NCBI GenBank assembly: GCA_963819655.1
Contig: CAWFXA010000001.1
Coordinates: forward strand, 327,155 to 391,154
Source of the DNA: an uncultured Chloroflexia bacterium
GTDB taxonomy: Bacteria > Chloroflexota > Limnocylindria > Limnocylindrales > CSP1-4
Direction: 5' to 3'
DNA: 64,000 nucleotides
Part shown: positions 6,567 through 54,838 of the stretch, piece by piece
Position numbering within the stretch: the stretch's first letter is position 1
Layout of the letters: the number at the start of each line of letters is the position of its first letter
Program-made: the position numbers and the translations under genes
Notes under the pieces: generated by a model
The model's input: the letters and a program-made list of their open reading frames with translations, nothing else
The model's database searches: none
Told to the model about the DNA's origin: nothing

Positions 6567-7853
6567 CTACGACGGCGAGGGCGACGCCTCGGCCGGGACC
6601 TCCTCGGTCACCGGCACCGGGATGATGATCTCGTCGCCGACCTTGATCCGGTTCGGGTTCGAGATGCGGTCCTTGTTGGCCTCCAGCAACGCGTCGAGCG
6701 TCACATTGAACTCGCGCGCGATCCGCGACAGCGTGTCACCCGCCTTGATGACATAGGTCTGCGGGGTCGGGTCCGGGATCGGGGTTGGCTCAGTCGACGG
6801 GGTCGCCACCGCGACGGACGGGCTCGCGCTGGACGCGCCGCCGCCACCATTCGGACCGCCGACGCCGAGCAATGCCGGCAGGAAGAACAGGATCAGCGCG
6901 GCAAGAACCACGCCGCCGAAGAGGATCCCCACGGTCGGGATCGCCGGGAGACCCGAGAGCCCGGCCCGCGTCTTGATCGACGGGTACGCCTCATTGCGAC
7001 GCTGGCGCTCCCAGAGCGGCCCATCGTTGTCGGCTCGATCGGCCGCTCGATCGCGAGTGCGACCGCCGTCGCGCGTCGAACTGACGGTCGGGCGCCGCGC
7101 CGGTCGCGTCGGCGGTCGCACGACCGGATGGGCTTCGTCCTCCTCGGCCTGGCGCGCTGTGCGCCCGACGAGCCCGGCCAGGTCCGGGTCGGCGGGGACG
7201 GCCGGGCTGTCCTGCGGGGGCGACGGTGGGCGCGGCGATGAGCGCTGGCCCCACTCATCTGTGACGGCACCGCCTAGCGCCAGCCGGTCCGCGGCGCTGC
7301 CGGCCAGGCCCTGTCCCTCTGCCGGGACGGGCTGTCGATCGGCAGCATCGTCGGGGCGCGGCCCTTCGCGCCGCGGCCCACCGCCGCCCGGGCCAGACGC
7401 CCACGGTGGCGGGGCGGCCCAGTCGCGGGGCGGATTGCGCCGAGGGGGATCCTCGAGCGGCGGTTCCGGCCTGGCCTGGCCCCAGAGATCGGCGTCGGCG
7501 TCGGCATCCCCGTCGTCGGCGGCGCTCAGGATCGCTCCGGCCGCGACCGCATCGGCAGGCCCCACATCAGCGAGCCCCGCCCCGTCGTCATCTGTAACCG
7601 CAGCGACGGCCGCGCCCGGGATGGCACGAGCGGCCTCCCGCCGCGCCCATTCCTGGAAGGTCGGGCAGACGGGGAACGCGGACGAGAGGCAGTACGCCTC
7701 CTGGTGGGCGAGGGCGCGCGGTGCCGGCTCCGTCTCGGCGAAGCACCGGTGGCGGTGATCCGGCCGATCGGCGCGCTCGTCGCGATCGTCCTCGAATGCG
7801 ACGAACGGGCAGGCCGATGAACCGTCCGCGCTGGGCAACCCTCGGTCCGTCAT
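6567..7853 (-). CDS. LysM peptidoglycan-binding domain membrane protein with an N-terminal Cys4 motif and a Pro/Ala-rich linker
   Basis: C-terminal LysM (YVIKAGDTLSRIAREFNVTLDALLEANKDRISNPNRIKVGDEIIIP). One TM helix (ILFGGVVLAALILFFLPALLGV). N-terminal CPF...HRC...C...CP. Start taken at MTDRGLPSADG. Confidence 0.7.
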   Translation of the reverse strand: MTDRGLPSADGSSACPFVAFEDDRDERADRPDHRHRCFAETEPAPRALAHQEAYCLSSAFPVCPTFQEWARREAARAIPGAAVAAVTDDDGAGLADVGPADAVAAGAILSAADDGDADADADLWGQARPEPPLEDPPRRNPPRDWAAPPPWASGPGGGGPRREGPRPDDAADRQPVPAEGQGLAGSAADRLALGGAVTDEWGQRSSPRPPSPPQDSPAVPADPDLAGLVGRTARQAEEDEAHPVVRPPTRPARRPTVSSTRDGGRTRDRAADRADNDGPLWERQRRNEAYPSIKTRAGLSGLPAIPTVGILFGGVVLAALILFFLPALLGVGGPNGGGGASSASPSVAVATPSTEPTPIPDPTPQTYVIKAGDTLSRIAREFNVTLDALLEANKDRISNPNRIKVGDEIIIPVPVTEEVPAEASPSPS

Positions 7854-8000
7854 CCGGTCGATGATACCCGCGGTGCTGCCGATGTTCCGGTGCGTCGACA
7901 CCCCAACCCTTCCGTGCCACCCCGCGAGAGGCGGTTGCCACGCAACACGTGGTAACCGGTCGTTGCCCGGGCAGAAATACGTCGCCAGCACGCTTGGTCA

Positions 8001-8825
8001 ATGGAATCATCGACGCTCACCCTGCACACCGCCGATCGGATCGAGCCCTCCACGGCCGCCGTGCCGGTCGGCCCTGGTCTCGACCCCGGATCGGCCAAAC
8101 CGCGGTCCGCCGAGATGCACCCGGGCCCGGGCTTCAGGCTCCGCTACGACATCGACCGGCCGAGCCCGGCGATCCTCGAGCGCCTCGGCCGTTTCGACAC
8201 CCCATCGATCTCGGACCAGCTGAACCGGCTGTTCACGATGTCGGCGGCGATCCAGCTCCAGACAGATCCGCAGCATCGGATCCTCGGGCCGGCCGTCACG
8301 GTGAAGGTGTTCCCCGGCGACAACCTCATGGTCCACAAGAGCCTGGACATCGCCAGGCCCGGCGACATCCTGGTGGTCGACGCGAGCGGCTCCGCGCTGA
8401 CGGCGGTGCTCGGCGACCTCATCTCGACGAAGGCGCGGCACCGCGGCATCGCCGGCGTGGTGATCGACGGCCTGGTGCGCGACCTCCCGGCCATCCAGGC
8501 CCTCGGCGACTTCCCGGTCTTCGCACGCGGCGTCACCCCGATCGGTCCGCTCCACCGCGGACCCGGCGAGGTCAACTTCCCGATCTCGGCCGGAGGCATT
8601 GTGGTCAATCCCGGTGATGTCATCTCCGGCGATCTCAACGGCGTCGTGGTAATCCCGCGCGACGTGCTGCCCGCGATCCTGCAGCGGCTCGAGATCCGAG
8701 AGGCCATCGAGGCCGAGTACCACGCCGCCGTCCAGCGCGGCGACTTCTCCAACGCGTGGGTCGACCAGACCCTCGAGGAGGCCGGCGTCGCGGTCGCTCC
8801 GGACCCGACGATCGGCCTTCGGTGA
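8001..8825 (+). CDS. RraA-family protein (4-hydroxy-4-methyl-2-oxoglutarate aldolase / oxaloacetate decarboxylase-like; regulator of RNase E activity A fold)
   Basis: Family signature GIAGVVIDGLVRD and overall RraA/MenG-like topology. An alternative start at the internal MHPGPGF (~8115) would give 237 aa. The stop overlaps the GTG start of the next gene (GTGA). Confidence 0.8.
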   Translation: MESSTLTLHTADRIEPSTAAVPVGPGLDPGSAKPRSAEMHPGPGFRLRYDIDRPSPAILERLGRFDTPSISDQLNRLFTMSAAIQLQTDPQHRILGPAVTVKVFPGDNLMVHKSLDIARPGDILVVDASGSALTAVLGDLISTKARHRGIAGVVIDGLVRDLPAIQALGDFPVFARGVTPIGPLHRGPGEVNFPISAGGIVVNPGDVISGDLNGVVVIPRDVLPAILQRLEIREAIEAEYHAAVQRGDFSNAWVDQTLEEAGVAVAPDPTIGLR

Positions 8826-10030
8826 GCCTGCGTCACCTGCCGCCGGCCGTCCTTCTGGGCGGCAACGCGAACACGGTCTCGGTCGCGCGAAGCCTGGGCC
8901 GTCGTGGTGTCGACGTCACGGTCTACGGCAACGGCCACCCGCACGTCCGCTACTCGCGGTTCTGTACACGCTACGTGGACGTCGGGCGTGGACCCGACAT
9001 CGGCGATCGCTGGCTACGCCATCTGCTCGACCGGCCACGGGACGCCGTCATCCTCCCGTGCGATGACGATGCGTTGGCAATGCTGGCTCGCAGCCGGAGC
9101 GCGCTGGCCCAAGCCGGCTACAGCCCGTTCGAGGCGCGTGACGATGTCGTCCTCTCGATGCTCGACAAGGCTCGGACCTACGAGCTGGCGGCTGCCGCCG
9201 GCGTCCCGGCACCGTGGTTCCTCCGACTGACCGACGCGGCCTCGGTCGATCGAGCGATCGAGGAGATCGGGTTCCCGAGCGCACTCAAGCCGGTCAGCTC
9301 GCATGCGTTCGCGCGTGTCTACCGCGGGCGCAAGGCGTTCATCGTCAAATCGGCCGACGAGATGCGCCAGCGCAAAGCCGAGACGGCCGAGTACGGGCTC
9401 GCGATGATGGCCATCGAGATCATCCCGGGCCGGGATGACCGCCTGTGCTCCTACTACGCCTACATCGATGAGCACGGGCGGTCGCTGGTCACGCTGACGA
9501 AGCGCAAGATCCGCCAATACCCGACAGGGTTCGGGCTGGGCTCCTTCGAGATCACCGACGAGGCCCCCGATGTCGCCGCGGCCGGTGCGGCCTTCTTCGC
9601 GTCGGTCGGGATCCGTGGCCTTGCGAACGTCGAGTTCAAGCGCGACGACCGCGACGGGACCCTCCGATTGATCGAGTGCAATCACAGGTTCACGGCGTCC
9701 AATGAGCTCGTGCGCGTGGCGGGCGTCGACCTGGCGTGGCTCGCTTATGCCCGGCTGGCCGGCGTGACCCCACCGCCGCTCGATCGATACCGGCCGGGCG
9801 TGACGCTCTGGAACCCATCGCGCGACCTGCGCGGGATCGCGAGCGCGACGCGTCGGGGGCAGACGCGCGTCGACGAATGGCTGCCGGGTCTGCTGCGCCG
9901 CCACGTGCTGCCCGTGTTCCGCTGGGACGACCCGGCTCCGACCATCGCGTATCACGCATCGACCCTCGCGCGCATCCCGGCCAAGGTGGGTTTTCGGGCA
10001 GAGATCGGTCCCGCCGTCTCGGCCTCCTGA
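8822..10030 (+). CDS. ATP-grasp carboxylate-amine ligase (COG3919 / D-aspartate-ligase-like family)
   Basis: ATP-grasp core motifs (SALKPVSSHAFARVYRGRKAFIV, ANVEFKRDDRDGTLRLIECNHRF). The GTG start overlaps the upstream stop. The next gene follows 10 nt downstream. Confidence 0.8.
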   Translation: MSLRHLPPAVLLGGNANTVSVARSLGRRGVDVTVYGNGHPHVRYSRFCTRYVDVGRGPDIGDRWLRHLLDRPRDAVILPCDDDALAMLARSRSALAQAGYSPFEARDDVVLSMLDKARTYELAAAAGVPAPWFLRLTDAASVDRAIEEIGFPSALKPVSSHAFARVYRGRKAFIVKSADEMRQRKAETAEYGLAMMAIEIIPGRDDRLCSYYAYIDEHGRSLVTLTKRKIRQYPTGFGLGSFEITDEAPDVAAAGAAFFASVGIRGLANVEFKRDDRDGTLRLIECNHRFTASNELVRVAGVDLAWLAYARLAGVTPPPLDRYRPGVTLWNPSRDLRGIASATRRGQTRVDEWLPGLLRRHVLPVFRWDDPAPTIAYHASTLARIPAKVGFRAEIGPAVSAS

Positions 10031-10039
10031 GGCGTCCGG

Positions 10040-11167
10040 ATGTCCATCGCGCGGGACGCCGTGCTCCCCTCGCCGCCACGTGTGACGTTCATCCCGGGCG
10101 ATGGCATCGGGCCCGACGTGATGGGCGCGGCGCTGGCCGTGATCGAGGCGTCCGGGGCCACCATAGAGTGGGACGTGCGCCAGGCGGGTGCCGCAGCGGC
10201 CACTGACGGAGGTGAGAGCCTGCCCGACGACGTGGTCGAGGCGATCCGCGCGACGCGGGTCGCGCTGAAGGGCCCGACCGCGACAGCCACCCGCGGCGAA
10301 CGGGCCGTGAGCGTCCGCCTGCGTGCCGCGCTGGACCTCGAGCTCGGCATCCGGCCGGTGCGGAGCTGGCCAGGGGTCGTCGGGGCGGTCAACTCGGTGA
10401 CGTCGTCGAACCTCGACATCATGCTCATCCGGATGCTCGGGGAGGACCTGTACGCCGGCCTCGAGTTCGAAGCTGACGATCCGGCCGCCGTCGATCTCCG
10501 CCGGCTCTGGGCGTCCCGTGGTCGAGCCCTCCCAAAGGACACGGCCTTCTCATTGAAGGTGTTGTCGGACCGGGCGATCGAGCGGTTCGCCCGAGCCGCC
10601 CTGACGCAGGCGCGGATCCATGGCCGGCGGCGCATCACGATCGTCCACAAGGCGACCGTCATGCGGGCGACCGACGGTCGGTTCCGATCGATCGTGGAGG
10701 AGGTGGCGCGCAAGGTCGGGGGGTTCGAGGTCGACGACCGTCTCGTCGACACGGTCTGCCTCGACCTCATCCGTCACCCGGAGCGCTTCGACGTGCTGCT
10801 CGCGCCGGTGATGTACGGCGACATCCTGTCGGACGTGATCGCCGGGCTCGCCGGCGGGCTCGGCCTGGCGCCGGGCGCCAACATCGGGCGGCACGCCGCC
10901 GTCTTCGAGCCGGTCCACGGGACCGCGCCATCGCTCGCCGGACTCGACCGAGCCGACCCCATCGCGGCGATCCTGACGGGCGCCATGCTGCTACGACACC
11001 TCGACCTGCCGGTCGAGGCACAGCGGATCGAGACCGCGGTCCGCTGCACCCTGACGACCGGCAGCGTGCTGACCTATGACCTGGCAGGCGTCCCGCGCGA
11101 CCACGAACGCGCTGCGAGCACCCATGCCATGACCGACGCCGTGATCGCTGCGCTGCCTCCGGGGTGA
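10040..11167 (+). CDS. Isocitrate/isopropylmalate dehydrogenase family beta-decarboxylating dehydrogenase (tartrate/homoisocitrate DH-like)
   Basis: Family signature around MYGDILSDVIAGLAGGLGLAPGANIG, and N-terminal VTFIPGDGIGPDV. The stop overlaps the next gene's GTG (GTGA). Confidence 0.85.
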   Translation: MSIARDAVLPSPPRVTFIPGDGIGPDVMGAALAVIEASGATIEWDVRQAGAAAATDGGESLPDDVVEAIRATRVALKGPTATATRGERAVSVRLRAALDLELGIRPVRSWPGVVGAVNSVTSSNLDIMLIRMLGEDLYAGLEFEADDPAAVDLRRLWASRGRALPKDTAFSLKVLSDRAIERFARAALTQARIHGRRRITIVHKATVMRATDGRFRSIVEEVARKVGGFEVDDRLVDTVCLDLIRHPERFDVLLAPVMYGDILSDVIAGLAGGLGLAPGANIGRHAAVFEPVHGTAPSLAGLDRADPIAAILTGAMLLRHLDLPVEAQRIETAVRCTLTTGSVLTYDLAGVPRDHERAASTHAMTDAVIAALPPG

Positions 11168-13866
11168 ACGACGGGTCGGTCCCCGAGGTCGATGGCGACG
11201 CCACGCGCGAGAGTGCTGCGCACGTCCGCGGCTCCACATTGCTGGTCGTCGGCCGGTTCGTGTCGCTCGGGATCAACTTCGCGACCCAGGTCCTCATCGC
11301 CCGTCACCTCGGCCAGACCGAGTTCGGAGCGTTCGCGCTGGCATTCGCGATCGCGGGCCTCTGCCAGGTGCTCATCACGCTCGGGCTGCATCGGGGTGTT
11401 ACGCGCTTCCTGACCGCCGACCTCGAGCGTGGCGACCACCCGCGGTTCGTCGGGACGATCGTGCTCAACGTCGCCGTCATCGTCGTCCTGGGGGCGATCC
11501 TCGTCGGCCTTGTAGCTGTCGCCCAGCAGGGCCTGACCGCTGCCGGCATCCTGCAGCCTGCCGCGACGGGCCTGCTCCTGATCCTGGTGCTGCTGGCCCC
11601 GATCGACGCCCTCGACGATCTGCTGATCTCGCTGTACGCGATCTTCGACAGCCCACGCTCGATCTTCGTCAGGCGTTACATCCTCGGGCCGGCGTTGCGG
11701 CTCGGCGTGGCTGTGGCCGTGGTCCTCGCGAGCGGCGGGGCGATCGAGCTCGCGGTCGGCTACGTCGCAGCCAGCCTGTTCGGTCTGGCGCTCTACGGCG
11801 CGCTGTTCATCCAGATGCTGATGCGGTCCGGCATCGTGAAGGCGGTGGGCGGCAGGCCGCTCGTCATCCCGGCCCGAGAGGTCATCGGCGCGTCGGTCCC
11901 GCTGCTGTCGACGGATGCCGTGTGGCTGCTCATCAACACGTTCCCGATCTTCGTCCTGACGGCGGCCAGCGGCCTGGCCGACGTCGCGGCATACCAGGTC
12001 ATCCGCCCAGCCGCCGCGCTCAATCTCCTCGTCGCGGCCAGCTTCCACGTCCTCTACCTGCCGCTGGCGACACGTCTGGCGAACCGGCGCGACATCGCTG
12101 GCTCGAACGAGCTGTACTGGCGAACGACGATCTGGGTCGCCGTCCTGACGTTCCCGATCTTCGCGGCCACGTTCGCCCTCGGGCGACCCCTGACGACCTT
12201 CGCGTTCGGGGAGCGTTACGAGGCGTCGGGAATGTACCTGAGCGTCCTCGCCGTCGGCTACATGGTCCACGCGGCGCTTGGCTTCAACGCCACGACACTG
12301 GCCGCGCACGGCTATCACCGAACGGTCGCCATCGCCAACGGGGTGACGGCGGGCATCAGCGTCGTCGCGGCGCTCGTCCTGATCCCGCCGTTCGGCGCGC
12401 TCGGTGCGGCCGTGGCGTCGACCGCGACGTTGTTCGCCCAGAACGCTCTCCTGCAGGTCGGTCTGAAACGGCGCATCGGTATCGCTCTGGTCCACCGGGA
12501 CGCCGTGCGGGTCTACGCGGTCATCGCCCTTGCCGCGGGCACCCTCTTCGCGATCGAATCGTTCGCGTCGCTCGGTCTCTGGACGCTCGCGCTTGCAGCC
12601 GTCGAGGCGGTGGGAGTCCTCTATCTCGCGCGCCACGCCATGCAGGTCACGACGATCTTCCCGGGCATCAACCCCCAGATCATCCGGCTGCTTGCATCGG
12701 CGGGTCCGGCGGGCCGGCGGTTGGCATCTGGTCTCGATCTGCTTCGCTCGATCCGGCCGGACGATGCCGCCCGACGCTTCCGTCAGGCACATCGATGGGC
12801 CGCGCAGGACGGGGTCGCGCGTGCTGCGATCTACCGGTCGATCTGGATGGAGGCAGGTCGCGCCATCGGGGCGGACGTCACGGAGGTCGCGCGCGGTACG
12901 TTCGAGCTCCGCGCGGGCCCGCGCCGAGCGATCGTCACCGACCACCTCCTGCGCCTCGACTCGGATGCTGCCCTCGGCCGCGCGATCGACAAGCCGGCCG
13001 TCAGCCGGATGCTCCGGGCAGAGGGCCTCCCGGCCCCCGCCCATCTGGCGTTCTCGTTCGCCGATTTCGGCGCGGCCGTCGCGTTCCTCGCGGCGGCTCC
13101 CGGGCCGTGCGTGGTCAAGCCGGCGCACGGCCGCACGGGGTCTGGCGTCACGACCAACGTCCGGACGCCCGAGGACCTGCTTCGTGCCGTCGTTCGGGCC
13201 GGCGCCGACAGTGACGATCTGCTCATCGAGCACCAGCTCGACGGTGCGGTCTACCGGCTGCTCTTCCTCGACGGGCAGCTCCTGGATGTCCTCGAACGGA
13301 GGCCACCCGGCGCCGTCGGTGATGGACGATCGAGGATCGGCTCGCTGATCGCGGCGGAGAACGAGCGTCGGCTGGGGGCCGCTGGTCGCGTCGGCCTGTC
13401 GTTGCTCAAGGTGGATCTGGATTGCCTGCTGACGCTGGCCGGAGCCGGTATGGACCTGCGCTCCGTGCCGCCGGCGGGCACGGTCGTCGTGGTCAAGACC
13501 GCGACGAACCAGAACGGGGCGCTCGAGAATCGCTCCGTCCTCCACGCCGTGGGCGCCGATCTGGTCGAGGAATCACGGCGGGCGGTCGAGCTCGTCGGGC
13601 TCAGGCTCGCAGGGGTGGACGTCGTGACGCTGGATCCCGTAGCTCCGCTGGCTGGCAGCGGCGGTGCGATCCTCGAGGTGAACGGCTCGCCGGGCATCCA
13701 CTACCACTACCTGGTCCACCCCGACAGCCCCCGCCGGCCCGTGGCGATCCCGATCATCGAGGCACTGCTCGACCTTGGGCCGGGTCCGTCGGTCGCACGT
13801 CCGGAGGTCGATCGGGCAGCCACGGGTTCCGCGTCGCGCACGCGCGAGCCGGGCACGGCCTCGTAG
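11164..13866 (+). CDS. Fusion protein: N-terminal Wzx/MOP-superfamily polysaccharide/oligosaccharide flippase-like membrane domain (~500 aa, ~12-14 TM) plus C-terminal cyanophycin-synthetase-N-domain-like ATP-grasp domain (~350 aa)
   Basis: The N-terminal half is multi-TM with PST/MOP-like features (VVGRFVSLGINFATQVLIARHLG...). The C-terminal half carries ATP-grasp motifs (CVVKPAHGRTGSGVT, ILEVNGSPGIHYHY) and a CphA-N-like arrangement. Confidence 0.8.
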   Translation: MNDGSVPEVDGDATRESAAHVRGSTLLVVGRFVSLGINFATQVLIARHLGQTEFGAFALAFAIAGLCQVLITLGLHRGVTRFLTADLERGDHPRFVGTIVLNVAVIVVLGAILVGLVAVAQQGLTAAGILQPAATGLLLILVLLAPIDALDDLLISLYAIFDSPRSIFVRRYILGPALRLGVAVAVVLASGGAIELAVGYVAASLFGLALYGALFIQMLMRSGIVKAVGGRPLVIPAREVIGASVPLLSTDAVWLLINTFPIFVLTAASGLADVAAYQVIRPAAALNLLVAASFHVLYLPLATRLANRRDIAGSNELYWRTTIWVAVLTFPIFAATFALGRPLTTFAFGERYEASGMYLSVLAVGYMVHAALGFNATTLAAHGYHRTVAIANGVTAGISVVAALVLIPPFGALGAAVASTATLFAQNALLQVGLKRRIGIALVHRDAVRVYAVIALAAGTLFAIESFASLGLWTLALAAVEAVGVLYLARHAMQVTTIFPGINPQIIRLLASAGPAGRRLASGLDLLRSIRPDDAARRFRQAHRWAAQDGVARAAIYRSIWMEAGRAIGADVTEVARGTFELRAGPRRAIVTDHLLRLDSDAALGRAIDKPAVSRMLRAEGLPAPAHLAFSFADFGAAVAFLAAAPGPCVVKPAHGRTGSGVTTNVRTPEDLLRAVVRAGADSDDLLIEHQLDGAVYRLLFLDGQLLDVLERRPPGAVGDGRSRIGSLIAAENERRLGAAGRVGLSLLKVDLDCLLTLAGAGMDLRSVPPAGTVVVVKTATNQNGALENRSVLHAVGADLVEESRRAVELVGLRLAGVDVVTLDPVAPLAGSGGAILEVNGSPGIHYHYLVHPDSPRRPVAIPIIEALLDLGPGPSVARPEVDRAATGSASRTREPGTAS

Positions 13867-13977
13867 CCGTGGTCGACCCTGAAGGCGTTTTGACACGCTC
13901 TCTGTGCACCCGGACACGTCACGGTCTTTCTCGAGACGGTAGGGTGGTGTCCCCGACCCAGTGTGAGAAGGAGTCCC

Positions 13978-14409
13978 ATGTCTCGCCTGACCCGTTGGCT
14001 CGCGCCGACAACGACAGCCCGCGCCCATTGCGACCTCCCCTGCGGCGTCTACGACCCCGAGCAGGCGCGCATCGAGGCCGAGTCCTGCCACAGGATCAAC
14101 GAGAAGTACGCCGCCAACCAGGATGCCACCTTCCGGACCCGCGCGGTGGCGATCAAGGAGAACCGGGCCGACCTGGTCAAGCACCACCTCGACGTCCTGT
14201 GGCACGACTATTTCAAGCCGGAGCACCTGGAGGCCGTGCCGAACCTGCACGAGCTGTTCTGGAACGCGACCAAGCAGGTGTCGAAGGTCAAGGCATCGAC
14301 CGACGCCGCCGACTCGAAGGCGCTGCTCGACATGATCGACGAGATCGACGCCGCGTGGAAGAAGACCGGCGGCGAAGAGAAGACCCGCGTCGCGGGCCGG
14401 CCTTCCTGA
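13978..14409 (+). CDS. sodN: Nickel superoxide dismutase precursor
   Basis: The Ni-hook HCDLPCGVYDP sits immediately after a 16-aa propeptide MSRLTRWLAPTTTARA. Strong RBS GAAGGAG 7 nt upstream of the ATG. A possible TTGACA -35 hexamer lies ~85 nt upstream. Confidence 0.9.
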   Translation: MSRLTRWLAPTTTARAHCDLPCGVYDPEQARIEAESCHRINEKYAANQDATFRTRAVAIKENRADLVKHHLDVLWHDYFKPEHLEAVPNLHELFWNATKQVSKVKASTDAADSKALLDMIDEIDAAWKKTGGEEKTRVAGRPS

Positions 14410-14420
14410 TCTCCACCGAG

Positions 14421-14909
14421 ATGCGAATCCCGAGGCCCCGCCGGTCGGCGGGGCCTCGTCGTACCGAGTCGCTCCGGCATCGGCTGCGCGGTCCGTGGCG
14501 GATCGCGGTCATGCAGGCGAGCATGGAGCCCGCGATCCGCGAGGGCGACTGGCTGCTGGTCGACCCCACCACGACGCGCTGGCCCCGGCGTGGCTCGGTC
14601 GTGGCATTTCACGAACCCGACGGCGGCGTGTTGTCGATCAAGCGCGTGGCCGGCACGCCCGGCGATCGGGTGCCGTTCCGCGACGGCTACATCGAGTTGG
14701 CCGACGACGAGGCCTGGCTCGTATCGGACGCGGACGCAGCGGTTGCCGCCGAGGCGGGCCTCGGCGAGCCGGTCGACTCCAACCGCTATGGACCGGTGCC
14801 GGTCGCGCTCCTCGTGGGCAGGGTCTGGTTCCGCTACGGCCCGCTGCGCCGAATCGGGCGGCCCGGACCTTCGAGCCGTGGACGAACCGGACCTCAGACG
14901 GTACGGTGA
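14421..14909 (+). CDS. sodX: NiSOD maturation protease SodX (S26 signal-peptidase-like)
   Basis: Begins 11 nt after the sodN stop. S26 motifs SMEPAIREGD (catalytic Ser), GSVVAF and SIKRVAGTPGDRV. Confidence 0.8.
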   Translation: MRIPRPRRSAGPRRTESLRHRLRGPWRIAVMQASMEPAIREGDWLLVDPTTTRWPRRGSVVAFHEPDGGVLSIKRVAGTPGDRVPFRDGYIELADDEAWLVSDADAAVAAEAGLGEPVDSNRYGPVPVALLVGRVWFRYGPLRRIGRPGPSSRGRTGPQTVR

Positions 14910-27441: not shown

Positions 27442-28563
27442 ATGATGGCCCCCAGCGACGCCTCGGCAGAGATTCGCCTGATCGGCCTGGAGAAGCGCTT
27501 CGGCGAGATCCGGGCGGTCGACGGCGTGACGCTCGACATCCGGACCGCGGAGTTCTTCTCGCTCCTCGGCCCGTCGGGCTGTGGCAAGACCACGACCCTC
27601 AGGATGATCGGCGGCTTCGAGCGACCGACGGCGGGCCGGATCCTTCTCCGTGACCGCGACGTCACCGACGACCCGCCCGACAAGCGCCCGGTCAACATGG
27701 TCTTCCAGCAGTACGCCCTGTTCCCGCACCTCGACGTCGCGGCCAACATCGGCTTCGGGCTGCGACGCCGCAACGTCGCTCGGACCGAGATCGCGCGGCG
27801 TGTCGGGGAGGTGCTCGAGCTCGTGCGGCTGGAGGGCTACGACCGCCGCAAGCCGTCCGCGTTGTCGGGCGGTCAGCAGCAGCGCGTGGCGCTCGCCAGG
27901 GCGCTCGTGAACAGGCCGAACGTCCTCCTGCTCGACGAACCGCTCGGAGCGCTCGACCTGAAGCTCCGGCGCCAGCTCCAGGTCGAGCTCAAGCGGATCC
28001 AGGCTGAGGTCGGCATCACGTTCGTCTACGTGACGCACGACCAGGAAGAGGCACTCACGATGAGCGACCGGATCGCGGTCATGCACGCCGGCCGTGTCGA
28101 GCAGCTGGGGACGCCGGAGGAGCTGTACGAGCGGCCAGCGACTCGCTTCGTCGCCGATTTCATCGGGACGACGAACCTCCTGTCCGGGTCCGTCGAGTCG
28201 ACAGCCGGCGGAACCGCGATCGTCCGCCTCGAAGGCGGCGATACCTGCGCCGTGGCCGGCACTGACCTGCGCGCCGGCCGGACGGTCGAACTCTCGATCC
28301 GACCGGAATCGATCGTCCTGAAGCGGTCCAATGGCACCGCGCACGACGGCCACGCACCGCTGCGCGCCCAGGTCGAGCAGGTCGCCTATCTCGGGGGAAC
28401 CGTCCAGTACCAGGTCCGCACGCGCGGCGGCCTGGCAATCACCGTGCTCGCGCCGAAGTCCGGGGAGCGGCACCAGATCGGAAGCGACGTCGACATCGTC
28501 TGGCCGCCTGCCGAGGCACTGGTCCTCGACGCGGCCCCCGCCGAGGAGGAGGTCACGACATGA
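27442..28563 (+). CDS. ABC transporter ATP-binding protein, PotA/spermidine-putrescine-type
   Basis: Walker A GPSGCGKTT. Signature LSGGQQQRVALARAL. Walker B LLLDEPLGALD. C-terminal TOBE-like domain. Confidence 0.85.
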   Translation: MMAPSDASAEIRLIGLEKRFGEIRAVDGVTLDIRTAEFFSLLGPSGCGKTTTLRMIGGFERPTAGRILLRDRDVTDDPPDKRPVNMVFQQYALFPHLDVAANIGFGLRRRNVARTEIARRVGEVLELVRLEGYDRRKPSALSGGQQQRVALARALVNRPNVLLLDEPLGALDLKLRRQLQVELKRIQAEVGITFVYVTHDQEEALTMSDRIAVMHAGRVEQLGTPEELYERPATRFVADFIGTTNLLSGSVESTAGGTAIVRLEGGDTCAVAGTDLRAGRTVELSIRPESIVLKRSNGTAHDGHAPLRAQVEQVAYLGGTVQYQVRTRGGLAITVLAPKSGERHQIGSDVDIVWPPAEALVLDAAPAEEEVTT

Positions 28564-29768
28564 ACGAAAGGCACGATGGATCGAGCATCGATCTCGAGAA
28601 GGCTCTGGTCCGCTACATGGTGGAGCGCCGCGTCACACGCCGGGAGCTCCTCGAGCGCATCGCGCTGGTGGGCGGTGCGGCGGCGCTCGCGCCGGTCATC
28701 GCCGCCTGTACGTCGAGCGGCACGGCGAGCCCGTCGGTCTCGGCCGCCGCCGCGCCCTCGTCGGCCGCTCCGTCGGCGTCCGCGGCACCGACGCCTGTGC
28801 CATCGCCCGAGGCGGAGCTGAACATCCTCAACTGGGTCGACTACCTCGCCGACGATGTCATCAAGTCTTTCGAGGACCAGCACAACGTCAAGGTCACCCA
28901 GAGCTTCTTCTCGAATACCGACGAGATGTACGCCAAGCTCGGGACGGACGGTGGCGACTACGACATCAGCTTCCCGATCTCGGTCGACGTCCCGAAGATG
29001 ATCGAGGGTGGGGTCATCGCGAAGCTCGACCCGTCCTTCCTGACGAACATCGGCAACCTTGGCGCGGAATGGGCCAACCCGGGATACGACCCCGGCAACC
29101 AGTACACGGTCCCGTACATGTGGTGGACGACGGGTGTCGGCTACGACCCGGCGCGCATCAAGGAAGAGCCGACCAGCTCGAAGGCGCTCTGGGATGACCG
29201 CTGGAGCCAGCACATCGCGATGCTCGACGACTGGCAGGAGGTGTTCGGGCTGGCGCTGATCCAGCTCGGACATTCCGCGAACACCGAGGATGAAGCCCAA
29301 CTCGATGCGGCGCTGGCCCTCCTCAAGCAGCAGAAGCCGCTTGTCCGGACCTACTCGACCGACACGATCGCGACGATGACCTCGGGCGACGTGTGGATCG
29401 GTCACATCTGGGGTGCGGACCGCTTCGCCATCCAGGAAGCGATCCCGGACTTCGCCTACTACATCCCCGCGGAAGGCGGCGTGAAGGGCTCTGACACCGT
29501 CGCCACTTTCACGGGGTCGCCACATCCGATCGCATCGCAGATGTTCATCAACCACCTGCTCGACGCTCAGAACAGCGCCCTCAACACCAACCTCATCTAC
29601 TACATGGGCCCGAACGCGGCCGCGAAGGAGTTCATCGATCCGGCGATCCTGAGCGACCCGACGATCAACCCCGACCAGGAGATCGTCGACAAGCTCGAGG
29701 AGCTGCTCAGCCTCAGCGGTTCCGTCCGCGACGCGTACCTGTCGCGCTGGCAAGAGCTGCGAGGCTGA
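28560..29768 (+). CDS. ABC transporter substrate-binding lipoprotein, PotD/PotF (polyamine/opine) family
   Basis: ATGA overlap with the ATPase gene. Lipobox IAACTSSG. Family-typical WVDYLADDVIKSFE...GHIWGAD. Confidence 0.8.
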   Translation: MNERHDGSSIDLEKALVRYMVERRVTRRELLERIALVGGAAALAPVIAACTSSGTASPSVSAAAAPSSAAPSASAAPTPVPSPEAELNILNWVDYLADDVIKSFEDQHNVKVTQSFFSNTDEMYAKLGTDGGDYDISFPISVDVPKMIEGGVIAKLDPSFLTNIGNLGAEWANPGYDPGNQYTVPYMWWTTGVGYDPARIKEEPTSSKALWDDRWSQHIAMLDDWQEVFGLALIQLGHSANTEDEAQLDAALALLKQQKPLVRTYSTDTIATMTSGDVWIGHIWGADRFAIQEAIPDFAYYIPAEGGVKGSDTVATFTGSPHPIASQMFINHLLDAQNSALNTNLIYYMGPNAAAKEFIDPAILSDPTINPDQEIVDKLEELLSLSGSVRDAYLSRWQELRG

Positions 29769-29776
29769 CCGGGCAC

Positions 29777-30679
29777 ATGGGCGCGGCGGTCGGCACAGTC
29801 GAGGCGACCGCCGCTGCCACACCCGGTCGATTGGCGCGACTGCGCGCCGCGTGGCTGGTCCTGCCCGGGGTGGGCTGGCTGATCGCGTTCTTCATCGTCC
29901 CGCTGGCGATCATCTTCGTGGTCAGCCTGGGCTCGCGCGACGCGCTCGACCGCATCACGCTCGAGCGGCTCTCGCTCGACAACTACGTCCGGGCGTTCGA
30001 TCCGGTCTTCCTGCCGACGTTCCTCAACTCGCTTCGCTACGCGGCGATCACGACGATCCTGTCACTCGCCATCGGCTACCCCGTCGCGTACTGGATCAGT
30101 CGATACGGCGGGCGGCACAAGGTCCTGCTGCTCATCCTCGTGATGCTCCCGTTCTGGACGAGCTATCTGATCCGGACGTACTCCTGGATCATCCTGTTGC
30201 GCGACAACGGTGTCGTGAACTCGGTCCTCCAGACGATCGGGCTGACCCAGGAGCCGATCATCCTCATGAACACGGACATCTCCGTGATCCTCGGGATGTC
30301 GTACGGGTTCCTGCCGTTCGCGATCCTGCCACTGTTCGTCTCGATCGACCGGCTCGATCCCGACCTCGTCGCGGCCGGACGCGACCTGTACGCCTCAGGT
30401 CGAGGCGCGTTCCTCCACGTGACTCTGCCGCTCACGATGCCCGGGATCATCGCCGCGGCATTGCTGACGTTCATCCCGGCGCTCGGCGACTTCGTGACGC
30501 CCGACCTGCTCGGCGGACCGCAGACGACAACGATCGCCAAGAACATCCAGGTCCTGTTCCTGGCGGGACGTGACTGGCCATACGGTGCGGCGCTCGGTTT
30601 CGTGCTGATGATCGTGACGCTCACCGGGACGCTCATCGCGTTGCGGACTCTCCGGCGAGAGGTTGTCGGTGGCGACTGA
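29777..30679 (+). CDS. ABC transporter permease (PotB-like)
   Basis: Six TM helices. EAA-like loop DLYASGRGAFLHVTLPLTMPGIIAAAL. Confidence 0.85.
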   Translation: MGAAVGTVEATAAATPGRLARLRAAWLVLPGVGWLIAFFIVPLAIIFVVSLGSRDALDRITLERLSLDNYVRAFDPVFLPTFLNSLRYAAITTILSLAIGYPVAYWISRYGGRHKVLLLILVMLPFWTSYLIRTYSWIILLRDNGVVNSVLQTIGLTQEPIILMNTDISVILGMSYGFLPFAILPLFVSIDRLDPDLVAAGRDLYASGRGAFLHVTLPLTMPGIIAAALLTFIPALGDFVTPDLLGGPQTTTIAKNIQVLFLAGRDWPYGAALGFVLMIVTLTGTLIALRTLRREVVGGD

Positions 30680-30703
30680 GACTGTCGGCGAGGCCGGCCC
30701 GCC

Positions 30704-31513
30704 ATGATCCGCGAGGGCAACCGCTGGCTGTCGGCCTACGCGGTCCTCGTGTACGCGTTCCTGTTCGCGCCGATCCTGGTCCTGATCATCTACTCGTTCA
30801 ATCGGGCCCGACGGGGACTCGTGTGGCAGGGGTTCACGCTCGACTGGTACCCGAAGCTGCTCGCGAACGACGAGCTGCTCGATGCGCTCATCGTCACGCT
30901 CCAGGTGGCGGCCGTCGCGGTCCTCGTGTCGACCGTTCTTGGCGCACTGCTCGGTCTCGGGCTGGCGCGGCTGCGGTTCCGCGGCCGTGGCGCGACCGAG
31001 ACGCTACTCCTCGTCCCGATGATCACGCCCGAGATCGTGATGGGTCTGTCGCTGCTGCTGTTCTTCGTCCAGCTGTTCGACGTCCATGGCTCGATCGCCC
31101 AGCTGTGGGTGGCGCACATCACGTTCTGCGTGTCATACGTTGCGATCGTCGTGCGCGCGCGAGCGGCGAACATGGACCCGCATCTGGAAGAGGCCGCGCG
31201 CGACCTCGGGGCGTCGGCCTGGGGCGCATTCCGTTTCGTGACGCTGCCGCTCATCGCACCGGCGGTGCTGGCCGGGGCGCTGCTGGCCTTCTCGCTGAGC
31301 TTCGACGATTACGTCGTCTCGACCTTCAACTCCGGGGTCGGCAGCTCGACCCTGCCGCTGTACATCTACGGCAAGATCAAGTTCGGCGTGACGCCCGAGA
31401 TCAACGCGATCTCGACGATCGTTGTCGCCGTCACCGCCGTCGCGATCCTCATCGCCTGGCGAGCCGGCGCGTTCAGCCCCGCGACCGAGCGGCGGGTCGC
31501 GGACGACCGCTGA
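30704..31513 (+). CDS. ABC transporter permease (PotC-like)
   Basis: Six TM helices. EAA loop EEAARDLGASAWGAFRFVTLPLIAPAVL. Confidence 0.85.
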   Translation: MIREGNRWLSAYAVLVYAFLFAPILVLIIYSFNRARRGLVWQGFTLDWYPKLLANDELLDALIVTLQVAAVAVLVSTVLGALLGLGLARLRFRGRGATETLLLVPMITPEIVMGLSLLLFFVQLFDVHGSIAQLWVAHITFCVSYVAIVVRARAANMDPHLEEAARDLGASAWGAFRFVTLPLIAPAVLAGALLAFSLSFDDYVVSTFNSGVGSSTLPLYIYGKIKFGVTPEINAISTIVVAVTAVAILIAWRAGAFSPATERRVADDR

Positions 31514-36037: not shown

Positions 36038-37876
36038 TTACGTTACGAGGACGAGGGCGTCGACTGCGATCGCGACGAACAGCAGCGACAGGTAGCTGAT
36101 CGAGTAGCGGTAGAGACTGATCGCCCCCTGGGTCGATGCCTCCTCGGACGATCCACGCCGCCACAGGGCGTACGCCTGCCAGATGAACACCGCTCCCAGG
36201 CCCACGGCGGCTCCGAGATAGATGAGACCCATCCGCGCGACGGGCCACAGGACGAGCGAGATCGCGACCATGAGCAGGGTGTACAGCCCGATCTGACGGG
36301 TCGTCTCGGGGATGCCCCGGACGACGGGCAGCATCGGCACACCCGCAGCGGCGTAGTCCTTGCGAATGCGCAGCGACAGCGCCCAGAAGTGGGGCGGCGT
36401 CCAGTAGAACACCAGCGCGAAGAGGATCAACGCCGGGATCCCGACGTCGCCGGTGACGGCCGCCCAGCCGATGACGGGTGGAAGCGCCCCGGCGGCGCCG
36501 CCGATGACGATGTTCTGGGGTGTCGATCGCTTGAGCAGCATGGTGTAGACGACGACGTAGAAGGCGATGGCCAGAAGCGTGAGGAACGCCGCGAGGAGGT
36601 TGATCGTCCAGGCCATCAGCACGAACGAGATGACGCCAAGGACGACTCCGAAGATCACGGCGTTCTCGGGCTCGACCTGGTGGGCCGGCAATGGTCGTCG
36701 CCTGGTGCGGGTCATGAGCGAGTCGATGTCGCGGTCGAGATAGCAGTTGATGGCGTTGGCGCTCCCCGCCGCGAGCGTGCCGCCGATGAGCGTCCAGGCG
36801 ACAGTCCAACCCCAGTCGCCCCAGTCGATGCCGGGCACCCAGCGGGTGGCGAGCACCATCGCGGGCACGGTCGTGACGAGCAGCAGCTCGATGATCCGCG
36901 GCTTGGTCAATGCGATGTAGGCGCGGATGCGGTCGCCGGTCGTCGGTGGGACGGCTGTCCCCGCTTCGGGCTCGCGCAGGCCGCCGGTGCGGACGGTGCG
37001 GGCCAAGTAGTAGCTCGTGACGGTGAGCCCCACCAGCGTCGCGAGGATCAGGGCACCGAGCGCAAGGTGCAACGTCTGAGTCCAGGCCGACAGTCGAGTC
37101 AGCACCTGCAGCCCGCCGATCGCGACCTGGATCGCGAACAGCAGCGCCGCGCCGACAGCCAGCCTGACGATCGCTGGCTCGTCTCGCTGGGTTCGCCAGG
37201 CGACGATCGCGAGGGCGACGACGATGGCACCGACGACTGCCGCCACCCATCGATGCAGGACATGGGCCGAGGTGACCTCGGTCAGCGGCGGGACGAGCGA
37301 CCCGTTCATCAGGGGCCAATCCGGGAAGACCAACGCGGTGTCGGTCGCGGTGACGTGGGACCCGAAGAGCAGCAGGGCGAACGTCGCCAGCGTCGCGAAT
37401 GCCGCGAGCAGAGTGAACCGCTGGCTACCGCCCCAGCCGCCGACACGGGCCGGGAAACTGGCACGGACCGTGACGTACACCAGCAGTGCCACCAGCAGCA
37501 TCGCCGCGGCCAGGTGCGCGGTGACCGACTCCCCGCTGTTCCCGAGGCGGACCGTCTCGCGTCCGAGCCAGGCCTGGAACCCGACGAGGACCACGGCACC
37601 GAGCGTCGGCCAGAGCAGCGACCGACGGTCGCGATGGTCGACCCAGGCGAGCACCGCCAGGGCCAGGATCTCGAAGCCGATGATCGCCGCGACGGTTCGA
37701 TGGATCCATTCGATCCAGGCCTTCGGATCGTCGAGCGGCGGGAACAGCTGCCCGTGGCACAACGGCCAGTCCGGACAGCCGAGTCCAGAATCGGTGGCGC
37801 GGACGATGACCCCGATCGTCACGAGCAGGATGGCCGTCCCGAGCGTGGTCGCGGCGAGCTTCTGGAAGCGGGTCAC
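36038..37876 (-). CDS. ctaAB: Fused haem A synthase (CtaA/COX15, N-terminal ~300 aa) and haem O synthase / protohaem IX farnesyltransferase (CtaB, C-terminal ~300 aa)
   Basis: CtaA motifs CPDWPLCHG and DWPLMNG with His-containing helices. CtaB motifs YIALTKPRI, NCYLDRDID and YWTPPHFWAL. A single 612-aa ORF with no internal stop. Confidence 0.8.
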   Translation of the reverse strand: MTRFQKLAATTLGTAILLVTIGVIVRATDSGLGCPDWPLCHGQLFPPLDDPKAWIEWIHRTVAAIIGFEILALAVLAWVDHRDRRSLLWPTLGAVVLVGFQAWLGRETVRLGNSGESVTAHLAAAMLLVALLVYVTVRASFPARVGGWGGSQRFTLLAAFATLATFALLLFGSHVTATDTALVFPDWPLMNGSLVPPLTEVTSAHVLHRWVAAVVGAIVVALAIVAWRTQRDEPAIVRLAVGAALLFAIQVAIGGLQVLTRLSAWTQTLHLALGALILATLVGLTVTSYYLARTVRTGGLREPEAGTAVPPTTGDRIRAYIALTKPRIIELLLVTTVPAMVLATRWVPGIDWGDWGWTVAWTLIGGTLAAGSANAINCYLDRDIDSLMTRTRRRPLPAHQVEPENAVIFGVVLGVISFVLMAWTINLLAAFLTLLAIAFYVVVYTMLLKRSTPQNIVIGGAAGALPPVIGWAAVTGDVGIPALILFALVFYWTPPHFWALSLRIRKDYAAAGVPMLPVVRGIPETTRQIGLYTLLMVAISLVLWPVARMGLIYLGAAVGLGAVFIWQAYALWRRGSSEEASTQGAISLYRYSISYLSLLFVAIAVDALVLVT

Positions 37877-51239: not shown

Positions 51240-51719
51240 GTGCGTGTCCGGATGGATGGCGTATACCGACTGAGCGTCGCGATCCTCGGCGACGAGGCCG
51301 ATGCGCGCGATGCCGCCCAGGACACGTTCATCACGGCGTGGCGGCAGATCCGAGCCGTGCGCGATCCGGGCAAGTTCGACGCGTGGCTCCAGCGCGTGGC
51401 GGTCAACGCGGCGCGGATGACGCATCGCTCGCGGCGACGTCGTGGCGTCCGCGAGATCCCGCTAAGCCGGCTCGGAGAGGCGCCGACCTCCGGGCCGTCT
51501 GTCGAGCTGGCGGACACCGATGGCCGCGTGCTCGATACCGCGATGCGGGCCCTCGAGATCGACCAGCGATCGATCCTCGTCCTGCACCACCTCGAGGGCC
51601 GATCGATCGTTGAGCTGGCGGCGATCCTCGATGTCCCGACGGGGACCGTGAAGTCTCGTCTGCACGCCGCTCGGCGGGCGCTCCAAGCGGCGATCGACGC
51701 CGAAGCGATCGATCGATGA
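51240..51719 (+). CDS. ECF sigma factor, paralogue of the 4038-4601 gene; N-terminus unresolved
   Basis: Regions 2-4 are clear (DAAQDTFITAWRQIRAVRD; LHHLEGRSIVELAAILDVPTGTVKSRLHAAR). The conserved N-terminal LVERARNGDLDAFEEIV is encoded upstream of the first in-frame start codon. The only upstream ATG (51139) is in another frame. Confidence 0.75.
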   Translation: MRVRMDGVYRLSVAILGDEADARDAAQDTFITAWRQIRAVRDPGKFDAWLQRVAVNAARMTHRSRRRRGVREIPLSRLGEAPTSGPSVELADTDGRVLDTAMRALEIDQRSILVLHHLEGRSIVELAAILDVPTGTVKSRLHAARRALQAAIDAEAIDR

Positions 51720-54700: not shown

Positions 54701-54838
54701 GTCAGCGTCCACGCGACGCGGCAGGAGCCGTGTGATCTCACGGGCGTTGAGCGCCGCTTGGTGATCGACGTCGACGGCGCCCTGGACCCCAACGCCATCG
54801 AGACGATCTATACCGAGACCGTCACCGGCGCCTCATAA
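51716..54838 (+). CDS. Anti-sigma factor (1040 aa): N-terminal anti-sigma domain, one TM helix, large Cys-containing repeat ectodomain
   Basis: ATGA overlap with the sigma gene. The N-terminal 55 aa are paralogous to the anti-sigma at 4598. TM helix LPAAAVVVLALGVVAGGVAL. Internal ~130-aa repeat (aa ~276-410 versus ~524-655). Confidence 0.7.
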   Translation: MTSPIAPREPWDDRRLAAAFTARAAKTRTPNELVGDVVARVRTEDPPMPVWRRWLPAAAVVVLALGVVAGGVALSGDVRGQGLFREGPRADLKTLATGEFAFDYPAAWHGYDASAAGSGISSVAVLGTQSVERRCGNERHVDLNCVYEQRLEAGQIRLFVGTGAYRGQTIEDRAPIENGTSSRVRVGGMPAIFDEFDARPDSFYGEDTLIHWEIAQPGSAGTNVVRLEAMLREPGVTEGRRQLEALVASFRFTNGPDPSPPPTPEPTPTATPPRLADLRVMTVEELITATESPTPEEVIVRGWLGRSNAIFDCNIEPDPHPLIPRCEEFGLSLFQDPPFVERGTLEPSLPHVVPMLRIDAHADVPAMPGIAVEVLAVGHLLDHRWTTCPEAQQADCKARFVIDRVVAADQPLWDDLPTPWASPDGLPVSGPSEAVGVLSSIVGGVTVVSIGVADADALRSIEWQTRAKPDLQTSWVIRALIGRDAEPIARTFLVGDEGHSTVLEVTETGLVDLIGQPASAPPTEVLGLPVISVEEAIAIRDAGRDDREIAVRGWFPPSRSLRCAYPSPPITFFLEPYCQDGFSVLMAGPETLATGLPGGPHISVDLHDLEMAWYPTADSVEMVAIGHFDDRRSNWCDASRVDACRDRLVVDQVAWAAGAAQPLSVVMRTGTGDPAFGPVDAAITATTEAAILSSAAYRAWELMEIEPSLRDGRPGITDEPILWSVQVLEDERAATYVVVDGTDRVYRVETDGQTVQVGGTPLEDPARSWPPEGVLDVPMPEGGTGLTPKAGVIDRSGLLVEARAAGEADPGRPITELDPGEMAIVQAAPDTVVAYWNGSLCDDRFVLTLYGRGPSEAPDRLELRGERADLCRLALVRYGIRLRFSQPVDAASIRGWDRVGTPFEAFPPVDSTVVFLPKDGGFELPKVRAALIDLSGRVTAVRAIGPDDPRVLDLEAQGKVVWIRDRQLVGRYHLYWTGGICDGDSVVTIDATLSTVSVHATRQEPCDLTGVERRLVIDVDGALDPNAIETIYTETVTGAS

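Follow-up and report, generated by a model that had tools for sequence, protein, structure and literature searches.

A four-gene cassette lies in a 64,000-nucleotide stretch of DNA, hereafter the window, from an uncultured Chloroflexia bacterium of the Limnocylindrales (GenBank assembly GCA_963819655.1, contig CAWFXA010000001.1, positions 327,155 to 391,154). It encodes an RraA-like aldolase, a stand-alone ATP-grasp ligase designated AG2, a paralog of isocitrate dehydrogenase (IDH), and a fusion protein in which a Wzx/MOP-type flippase carries a second ATP-grasp ligase domain, designated AG4. The four genes come and go together at a variable site, and no characterized pathway matches the cassette. 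We lean toward the reading that the cassette attaches a non-sugar carboxylic acid to a lipid-linked glycan unit of the cell surface and that the decorated unit is then exported. A first-pass annotation, made from the letters of the window alone, had not recognized the combination as a known pathway, and that judgment holds: none of the four proteins reaches the cut-off of any NCBIfam equivalog model, and a search of a literature collection found no paper in it that couples an RraA-type protein with ATP-grasp ligases. The same search returned nothing relevant on ATP-grasp enzymes with capsular amidoligases or amide-linked O-antigen acids.

A four-gene unit at a variable site

The cassette comprises four co-directional open reading frames (ORFs) on the + strand (8001-8825, 8822-10030, 10040-11167, and 11164-13866) in a window of about 70% GC. 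The first-pass annotation had described four linked genes with GTGA overlaps at 8822 and 11164, which can be read directly from the sequence. At 8822-8825 the TGA stops the RraA-like gene and the GTG starts the AG2 gene; the overlap at 11164-11167 joins the IDH-like gene to the fusion gene. The "10-nt gap" at 10030/10040 does exist, but that figure is a difference between coordinates; the AG2 stop codon occupies 10028-10030 and the ATG of the IDH-like gene begins at 10040, so that 9 nt lie in between. On this layout the four genes are read as translationally coupled. The AG2 start at 8822 is preferred over an upstream GTG at 8756 because 402-residue homologs align over the whole query (100% coverage). 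A scan of 7800-14100 for sigma-70 promoters and intrinsic terminators found none, a scan that is uninformative for Chloroflexota sequence of 70% GC, and Rfam and tRNA scans of the window gave no match.

Neighboring proteins of the window belong to clusters at 90% identity in which the named members are "Candidatus Limnocylindrales bacterium", of the Chloroflexota. Four Limnocylindrales contigs encode an identical nickel superoxide dismutase (NiSOD) and share the gene order TPM/DUF2207, sigma factor, PD40, LysM, variable site, sodN, sodX. The four cassette genes occupy the site in L088 (the same contig as locus L087) and are missing from L089, L090, and L091. In blastn comparisons of the window with L089 and L090, flanking homology of 90-95% stops at position 7882 and restarts at 13872, and the empty sites hold only about 40 bp. 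It is because near-identical genomes lack exactly 7883-13871 that the four genes must be viewed as gained or lost together. Each end of the cassette has the sequence GTCGAC, perhaps by chance, and there is no accompanying integrase or transposase. The divergent upstream neighbor is the LysM (peptidoglycan-binding) gene. In L091, the same LysM/sodN site holds other cargo (7632-9746), an S8 (subtilisin-like) peptidase and a DUF6299 protein, and for this reason the intergenic site has the look of an accessory-gene hot spot in the lineage.

A further pair of loci documents loss of part of the set. The gene order in L002 is RraA, AG2, a UDP-glucose/GDP-mannose dehydrogenase, IDH, fusion. L003 has L002-like flanks and the fusion gene alone, the RraA, AG2, UDP-glucose/GDP-mannose dehydrogenase, and IDH genes being gone; since an 87-bp remnant of the IDH gene survives at 9898-9984, this state reflects deletion. 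In the AG4 part of the L003 fusion there is a frameshift near 12402, and Asp replaces the Asn of the E/D-x-N motif; the flippase part is intact. Identity to L002 is 82% ahead of the frameshift and 64% beyond it, with a sequencing or assembly error possible. L003 fits a history in which AG4 decayed after the loss of its partners while the flippase remained useful alone.

Table 1. Features of the cassette (positions in the window) and AG4 fusion architectures found in other proteins
Feature	Position or protein	Strand	Basis
Whole accessory cassette	7883..13871	+	four genes plus about 118 nt upstream; missing at the same site in close relatives
RraA-fold protein, HMG/CHA (class II pyruvate) aldolase / oxaloacetate decarboxylase type, 274 aa	8001..8825	+	PF03737
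AG2, stand-alone COG3919-type ATP-grasp ligase ("D-aspartate ligase"-like), 402 aa	8822..10030	+	fold, motif
IDH-family beta-decarboxylating dehydrogenase paralog, 375 aa	10040..11167	+	PF00180
Fusion protein: Wzx/MOP-type flippase domain, aa 1-493, about 14 predicted transmembrane helices	11164..12642	+	Pfam, AF2, Foldseek
Fusion protein: linker, two long Arg/Lys-rich helices, aa 502-568, predicted cytoplasmic	12667..12867	+	AF2
Fusion protein: AG4, cyanophycin-synthetase-G-domain-like ATP-grasp ligase domain, aa 571-870	12874..13773	+	NCBIfam, PDB, Foldseek
GT2::AG4 fusion	P0430		Pfam
Iso_dh::AG4 fusion	P0494		Pfam
AG4::Ldh_2 fusion	P0512, P0515		Pfam
AG2::AG4 fusion	P0432, P0561		Pfam
AG4::AG2 fusion	P0526		Pfam

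Recurrence, natural fusions, and glycan-assembly neighbors

A genome scan seeded with an AG2 alignment yielded 80 loci, and we defined as the core an RraA-like gene and a stand-alone AG4 gene within 6 kb of AG2 by tblastn. Counts were taken from tblastn because antisense ORFs made the clustering of ORFs noisy in high-GC loci. Homologs of the cassette genes do co-occur elsewhere. The core set of RraA, AG2, and AG4 is found in 49 of the 80 loci, drawn from Thermoleophilia, Geodermatophilaceae, Acidimicrobiales, Bacteroidota, Ignavibacteriae, and Thermoguttaceae, and the full set recurs in L001, L002, and L087; Myxococcales and Kiloniellaceae loci have AG2 and AG4 with no RraA match. On this comparative evidence, together with the fusions described below, the linkage of the genes is far beyond chance. 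The earlier proposal that the four genes form one unit is thus borne out three times over, by joint gain and loss between near-identical genomes, by co-localization across phyla, and by domain fusions in other organisms.

The dehydrogenase of the module is IDH-like in 21 loci and belongs to the Ldh_2 family (PF02615) in 16, and both kinds are present in one locus only. IDH-family enzymes use (2R)-hydroxy acids, and Ldh_2 enzymes mostly use (2S)-hydroxy acids. Because the two families differ in hydroxy-acid configuration, their mutual exclusion could mirror stereochemical variants of the product.

An exhaustive HMMER search with AG4 collected 393 clusters at E <= 1e-30. Judged by the natural fusion architectures (Table 1 and the window protein itself), the physical partners of AG4 include both kinds of dehydrogenase, the second ligase AG2, a glycosyltransferase, and a flippase. 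Four more proteins, P0433, P0456, P0472, and P0329, look like further AG2::AG4 fusions, as each has a LIECN motif upstream of its AG4 match and P0329 also has a precomputed ATPgrasp_Ter match. The full-length flippase::AG4 fusion is rare, with about 16 examples among 5.8 billion protein clusters. Related genomes carry unfused orthologs of its flippase part, at 55-61% identity, in a conserved housekeeping locus from which the other cassette genes are missing.

Families encoded beside the module include Wzy_C, GT4, GT2, MOP flippases, and the priming sugar transferase, as well as NDP-sugar epimerase/dehydratase, AsnB-like, and beta-helix proteins. Of the 49 core loci, 38 encode a member of one or more glycan-assembly families (Wzy_C, MOP flippase, GT4/GT2, or priming transferase), and 21 represent at least two such families; several of the core loci without such genes are short contigs under 10 kb. 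Chitinophagales locus L048 reads RraA, AG4, AG2, Ldh_2, unk329 (see below), GT4, GT4, GT4, AsnB on one strand with minimal gaps. In Geodermatophilus sabuli, a Polysacc_synt_3 flippase gene runs 4 bp into the start of the AG4 gene, an order that matches that of the two parts in the window fusion. AG4 comes after Wzy_C in six Solirubrobacterales loci, and the L002 operon encloses a gene for a nucleotide-sugar dehydrogenase, as noted above.

Other genes are also found with or near the module. A conserved protein of about 330 residues, which we call unk329, goes with it in 28 of the 80 loci (for example, L048 4609-5571), and the window has none. Searches of Pfam, NCBIfam, and PDB sequences gave no match for it, and it is probably a hydroxylase because of an invariant H-x-D...H pattern and weak matches of 4 of 10 members to WelO5, of the iron/2-oxoglutarate (Fe/2OG) family. 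A PqqD/RRE-like C-terminus, suspected from a PDB match at E = 1.1, found no support in Pfam and was rejected. In L013, L046, L053, L059, L063, and other Solirubrobacterales loci, genes for MaoC/mesaconyl-CoA hydratase-like, HpcH/HpaI (malyl-CoA lyase-like), acyl-CoA dehydrogenase, and succinyl-CoA-ligase-like proteins are near the module. They could represent mere synteny or a supply route for a C4/C5 dicarboxylic acid.

Properties of the four proteins

Profile hidden Markov model and structure-prediction searches agree with the families first predicted for all four genes, with one refinement, that the fused ligase resembles the G domain of cyanophycin synthetase. The RraA-like protein matches PF03737 at 1.5e-45 (155.6 bits against a Pfam gathering cut-off of 24.5). 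Among NCBIfam models PRK06201, an unnamed subfamily, comes nearest (227.1 against a cut-off of 231), and the protein scores below the LigK/PcmE-type equivalogs TIGR02798 (128.8 against 304.5) and PRK09262 (138.3 against 179). The top PDB sequence match is 3NOJ (1.3e-30), an HMG/CHA aldolase / oxaloacetate decarboxylase of LigK/ProA type, with which the window protein shares the RraA fold and all four of the residues that we take to be metal-binding and catalytic. D102, R123, D124, and E199 of 3NOJ align to D139, R160, D161, and E237, and among 56 cluster homologs they are kept in 54, 56, 56, and 46, respectively. Unlike 3NOJ, the window protein has a 45-residue N-terminal extension and sits outside any aromatic-degradation cluster.

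AG2 is recognized by fold and motif more readily than by profile. Its Pfam match to ATPgrasp_Ter is sub-threshold (24.6 bits against a cut-off of 29.1), and its NCBIfam ATP-grasp matches are also weak. It has no close solved relative, the best PDB E-value being 0.014, or 2.3e-10 by profile and then to carbamoyl-phosphate synthase only. The AlphaFold model (mean predicted local distance difference test score, pLDDT, 88.5) has a clear ATP-grasp fold plus a pre-ATP-grasp domain, and its top Foldseek matches are biotin carboxylase, RizA, and PurK, at probability 1.0. The motif LIECNHRF (E285, N287) is invariant in the alignment of AG2 homologs; like ILEVNGSPG in AG4, it contains an E-x-N sequence that we take, from general knowledge, to be the Mg-binding motif of ATP-grasp enzymes. 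AG2 homologs carry the JGI label "D-aspartate ligase", the same COG label as COG3919 ligases such as the Enterococcus faecium D-aspartate ligase and the peptide ligase PGM1; a functional D-aspartate ligase joins D-Asp to the epsilon-amine of Lys in the peptidoglycan precursor. In contrast to those two, AG2 is found in the context of polysaccharide loci, not in peptidoglycan clusters or clusters like those for ribosomally synthesized and post-translationally modified peptides.

A search of plasmids with AG2 found relatives of 24-32% identity only. One of these, at 27% identity and annotated "carbamoyl-phosphate synthase", is on Bacillus paramobilis plasmid NZ_CP155624.1 (L092, 7031-11243), where the gene order is PIG-L deacetylase, GT4, ATP-grasp, phosphotransferase. 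Although the relative is remote, the arrangement suggests that a deacetylated amino sugar is N-acylated. Other Bacillus, Priestia, and Cytobacillus plasmids also carry AG2 relatives.

The IDH-like protein matches PF00180 from end to end (1.7e-84, 284.5 bits, profile positions 2-348 of 348), and its best PDB sequence match is 6LKY, an NAD-dependent IDH (9.3e-73). It is separated from true IDH by its score to the best IDH equivalog model in NCBIfam, 262.7 against 509. The substrate loop reads RAVSV in the window lineage, where the aligned solved IDHs have RSVNV (6LKY) and KSANV (2D1C); the positions concerned presumably correspond to Ser113 and Asn115 of the Escherichia coli enzyme, which bind the gamma-carboxylate of isocitrate. 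Cluster-associated IDH-like proteins of other phyla mostly retain RSxN. Assignment as a housekeeping IDH was rejected for the window lineage because of the altered loop, because the gene belongs to an indel cassette, and because an Iso_dh::AG4 fusion exists. Also rejected was the alpha-aminoadipate (AAA)/LysW lysine pathway, in which a homoisocitrate dehydrogenase works with LysX. The LysX match is only 1.4e-4, far under cut-off, no homoisocitrate dehydrogenase equivalog cut-off in NCBIfam is reached, and no gene for a LysW-type small carrier or a homocitrate synthase was seen in the cassette or the loci inspected.

The membrane part of the fusion protein scores above the Pfam gathering cut-off for PF01943 (38.8 bits against 28.2) and PF13440 (25.7 against 23). 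An AlphaFold model of the whole protein (pLDDT 76.7) places about 14 helices at residues 11-493, further helices at 502-568, and the ATP-grasp domain at 571-870. Among the Foldseek matches listed, the flippase part is most similar to the lipid III flippase WzxE (TM-score 0.78-0.80) and then to MurJ (0.64-0.73). It has in common with WzxE (9G9N/9G9P) and MurJ the MOP-superfamily fold of about 14 transmembrane helices, and differs from both in bearing a 400-residue cytoplasmic ligase at its C-terminus. Fold and genomic association together suggest that the domain would translocate polyprenyl-diphosphate-linked oligosaccharides. Residues 489-627, which follow the last strongly hydrophobic stretch of the transmembrane region, include 22 Lys plus Arg. 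Because the number of helices is even and this basic segment follows, AG4 is predicted to lie in the cytoplasm, where ATP is available.

AG4 itself escapes detection by Pfam. The NCBIfam model cya_phycin_syn finds it at 4.8e-43, aligning residues 580-869 to profile positions 184-471 of 862, and a PDB sequence search finds the cyanophycin synthetase CphA1 (7LG5) at 4.8e-28. Foldseek likewise finds CphA1 at 1.9e-15, with 27-28% identity to CphA1/CphA2 over about 320 columns, and many AG4 homologs carry the JGI label "cyanophycin synthetase". However, AG4 was judged not to be a CphA1, since it scores 147.3 bits against the 850 set for that family and only the G-domain region matches, the remainder of the protein being flippase. 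AG4 has in common with CphA1 and CphA2 (7LG5, 7TXV, 7WAE, 7TA5, 8FXI) the fold of the G domain and, by analogy, may share its chemistry, in which a carboxylate is activated as an acyl phosphate and then attacked by an amine. It differs from them in lacking the N and M domains, in being joined to a membrane flippase, and in its partnership with an aldolase and a dehydrogenase.

Several other features of the window were recorded. Directly downstream of the cassette, at 13978-14409 (+), is the NiSOD gene with its own GAAGGAG ribosome-binding site; its product opens with MSRLTRW...AHCDLPCGVY, which we take to be a NiSOD pro-peptide together with the N-terminus that binds Ni. Next comes an ORF for an S26-family peptidase, presumably the maturation peptidase, which ends at 14909 (+), and this pair is kept in all relatives whether the cassette is present or not. 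An ABC importer operon at 27442-31513 (+), unrelated to the cassette, encodes a TOBE_2 ATPase, an SBP_bac_8 binding protein, and two permeases. A CtaA-CtaB fusion is encoded at 36038-37876 (-), where one ORF of 612 residues joins COX15-CtaA (heme A synthase) to UbiA (CtaB-type heme O synthase), and a 1040-residue ORF at 51716-54838 (+) has coding-like third-position GC (GC3) and no Pfam match at 1e-5.

Proposed mechanism, alternatives, and known systems

From these data we infer an acid, an acceptor, the bond formed, an order of steps, and a "modify, then flip" coupling, as follows. The metal-dependent RraA-like enzyme and the NAD(P)-dependent IDH-like dehydrogenase would make or tailor a 2-oxo- or 2-hydroxy-di- or tricarboxylic acid, candidates being a 4-hydroxy-2-oxoglutarate-type aldol product reduced at C2, 2-oxoglutarate, 2-hydroxyglutarate, and malate. 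AG2 and AG4 would then convert carboxylates to acyl phosphates and make two bonds in succession, amides or possibly esters, by which the acid, perhaps plus an amino acid, would be joined to an oligosaccharide carried on undecaprenyl at the cytoplasmic side of the membrane. AG4, tethered at the cytoplasmic C-terminus of the 14-helix Wzx-like flippase, would hand over the decorated unit for outward movement. We propose, because of this tether, that the unit is passed straight to its own flippase. As to the acceptor, the first-pass annotation had allowed for either a lipid-linked envelope precursor or an exported peptide-like metabolite; the flippase, Wzy, and GT2 links, seen with glycan-assembly genes in 38 of 49 core loci, favor a lipid-linked envelope glycan over the metabolite.

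A number of observations weigh against this proposal. The association with polysaccharide genes rests on neighborhood only, and in these phyla polysaccharide genes are common, 21 of the 31 non-core AG2 loci having them too. Near the cassette, in the window and in its close relatives, there is no gene for a glycosyltransferase, priming transferase, or Wzy, and another locus would therefore have to encode the glycan. Nor does the module have an aminotransferase or sugar-amination gene as a consistent neighbor. With respect to the enzymes, HMG/CHA aldolases are best known from catabolism, the RraA-like protein could simply be an oxaloacetate decarboxylase, and most cluster IDH-like proteins, with RSxN, may just be IDHs supplying 2-oxoglutarate.

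The same lack of glycan-assembly genes at the window locus would suit a soluble product, a peptide-like compound, compatible solute, or chelator built from the aldolase-derived acid and amino acids, for which the MOP domain would act as an efflux pump. COG3919/PGM1-type ligases do occur in pathways for peptide natural products, the cassette is accessory and strain-variable in the manner of biosynthetic gene clusters, and several flippase homologs have weak matches to MatE (PF01554). We nevertheless regard a soluble product as unlikely. Polysacc_synt families alone give above-cut-off scores for the membrane domain, whose closest folds are WzxE and then MurJ, with no MATE structure among the 50 matches listed. 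In other lineages AG4 is fused to GT2 or comes directly after Wzy_C or flippase genes, and the module sits inside same-strand glycosyltransferase operons.

Might AG4, with AG2, instead polymerize a cyanophycin-like polyamide? AG4 would build the backbone, AG2 would add the side groups, and the flippase-like domain would carry outward the polymer itself or a primer anchored to lipid. That only the G-domain region matches, with both the N domain that holds the polymer and the Mur-ligase M domain missing, makes this distinctly unlikely, even though the G domains of CphA1 and CphA2 are the closest characterized relatives of AG4, the JGI label of its homologs agrees with them, and recurrent AG2::AG4 fusions resemble the two-ligase layout of CphA1. 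An aldolase and a 2-hydroxyacid dehydrogenase have no part in an Asp/Arg polymer, the Iso_dh::AG4 and AG4::Ldh_2 fusions link AG4 to hydroxy- and oxo-acid chemistry, and its GT2 and Wzy links point away from such a polymer as well. A more novel variant, in which the fusion and AG2 would act at the membrane as a combined synthase and exporter, making a new sugar-free polyamide or polyester by cyanophycin-like polymerization and delivering it outside the cell through a Wzx-type transporter, strikes us as improbable; its monomer would be a hydroxy-polycarboxylic acid derived from the aldolase by way of the RraA-like and IDH/Ldh_2 enzymes.

Modification of lipid II, by a dicarboxylic acid or amino-acid branch added in the manner of D-aspartate ligase ahead of export by a MurJ/SpoVB-like flippase, is very improbable, since the cassette is dispensable, as its absence from near-identical genomes tells us, unlike a core wall-building step; the module is found elsewhere beside Wzy, GT4, and priming-transferase genes rather than mur or fts genes, no racemase or aminotransferase is linked to it, and WzxE outranks MurJ as a structural match (among the matches listed), all this notwithstanding the COG of AG2, named D-aspartate ligase by JGI, weak flippase matches to SpoVB (9.2e-06) and MurJ, the MurJ fold similarity, the divergent LysM neighbor, and the housekeeping locus of the unfused flippase orthologs.

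The proposed decoration has chemical precedents. Surface polysaccharides often bear amide-linked malyl, 2-hydroxyglutaryl, or oxoglutaryl groups or amino acids, for most of which the biosynthetic genes are unknown (PMC3210612). Among O-antigens, examples are known in which D- or L-malic acid or 2-hydroxyglutaric acid is bound through an amide, 2-hydroxyglutaric acid then acting as an in-chain linker (PMC3210612). Widespread and defined by sequence, the module is a candidate for amide-linked non-sugar acid chemistry of this kind, carried by abundant and poorly studied soil phyla (Chloroflexota, Thermoleophilia, Chitinophagales). The natural fusions are informative in that they connect ligase, dehydrogenase, glycosyltransferase, and flippase. 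The flippase::ligase fusion in particular suggests a physical "decorate, then flip" hand-off that, if true, would be a new way to match a Wzx flippase to its cognate substrate. The hypothesis can be tested directly in two carriers that are in culture, Geodermatophilus sabuli and Trujillonella endophytica.

Two known systems come close to what is proposed. In the Campylobacter jejuni capsule system, the C-terminal ATP-grasp domain of Cj1438 amidates a capsule sugar, joining the carboxyl of glucuronate to an amine. By description this is tailoring of a surface glycan by an ATP-grasp enzyme, as we propose for the cassette; it differs in that a glycosyltransferase-type domain, rather than a flippase, is the fusion partner of the ligase, which is not known to work with an aldolase or a dehydrogenase. 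The nearest precedent is Pyl, an ATP-grasp enzyme of the UDP-yelosamine pathway of Bacillus cereus, which ligates 2-oxoglutarate to UDP-4-amino-FucNAc (PMC11257628; reference 100 of PMC8987622). As proposed here, an ATP-grasp enzyme encoded in a surface-polysaccharide operon links a 2-oxo-dicarboxylic acid to an amino sugar through an amide, and its substrate is the acid that an IDH-type enzyme would supply. In contrast to the cassette, Pyl as described uses a soluble UDP-sugar and works as the sole ligase beside a dehydratase and an aminotransferase, an account in which no RraA-like aldolase, second ligase, or flippase fusion figures. ATP-grasp tailoring of surface glycans and Wzx flippases are of kinds already known, and what is new is the four-part module, its interchangeable dehydrogenase, and the fusion of a flippase to a ligase.

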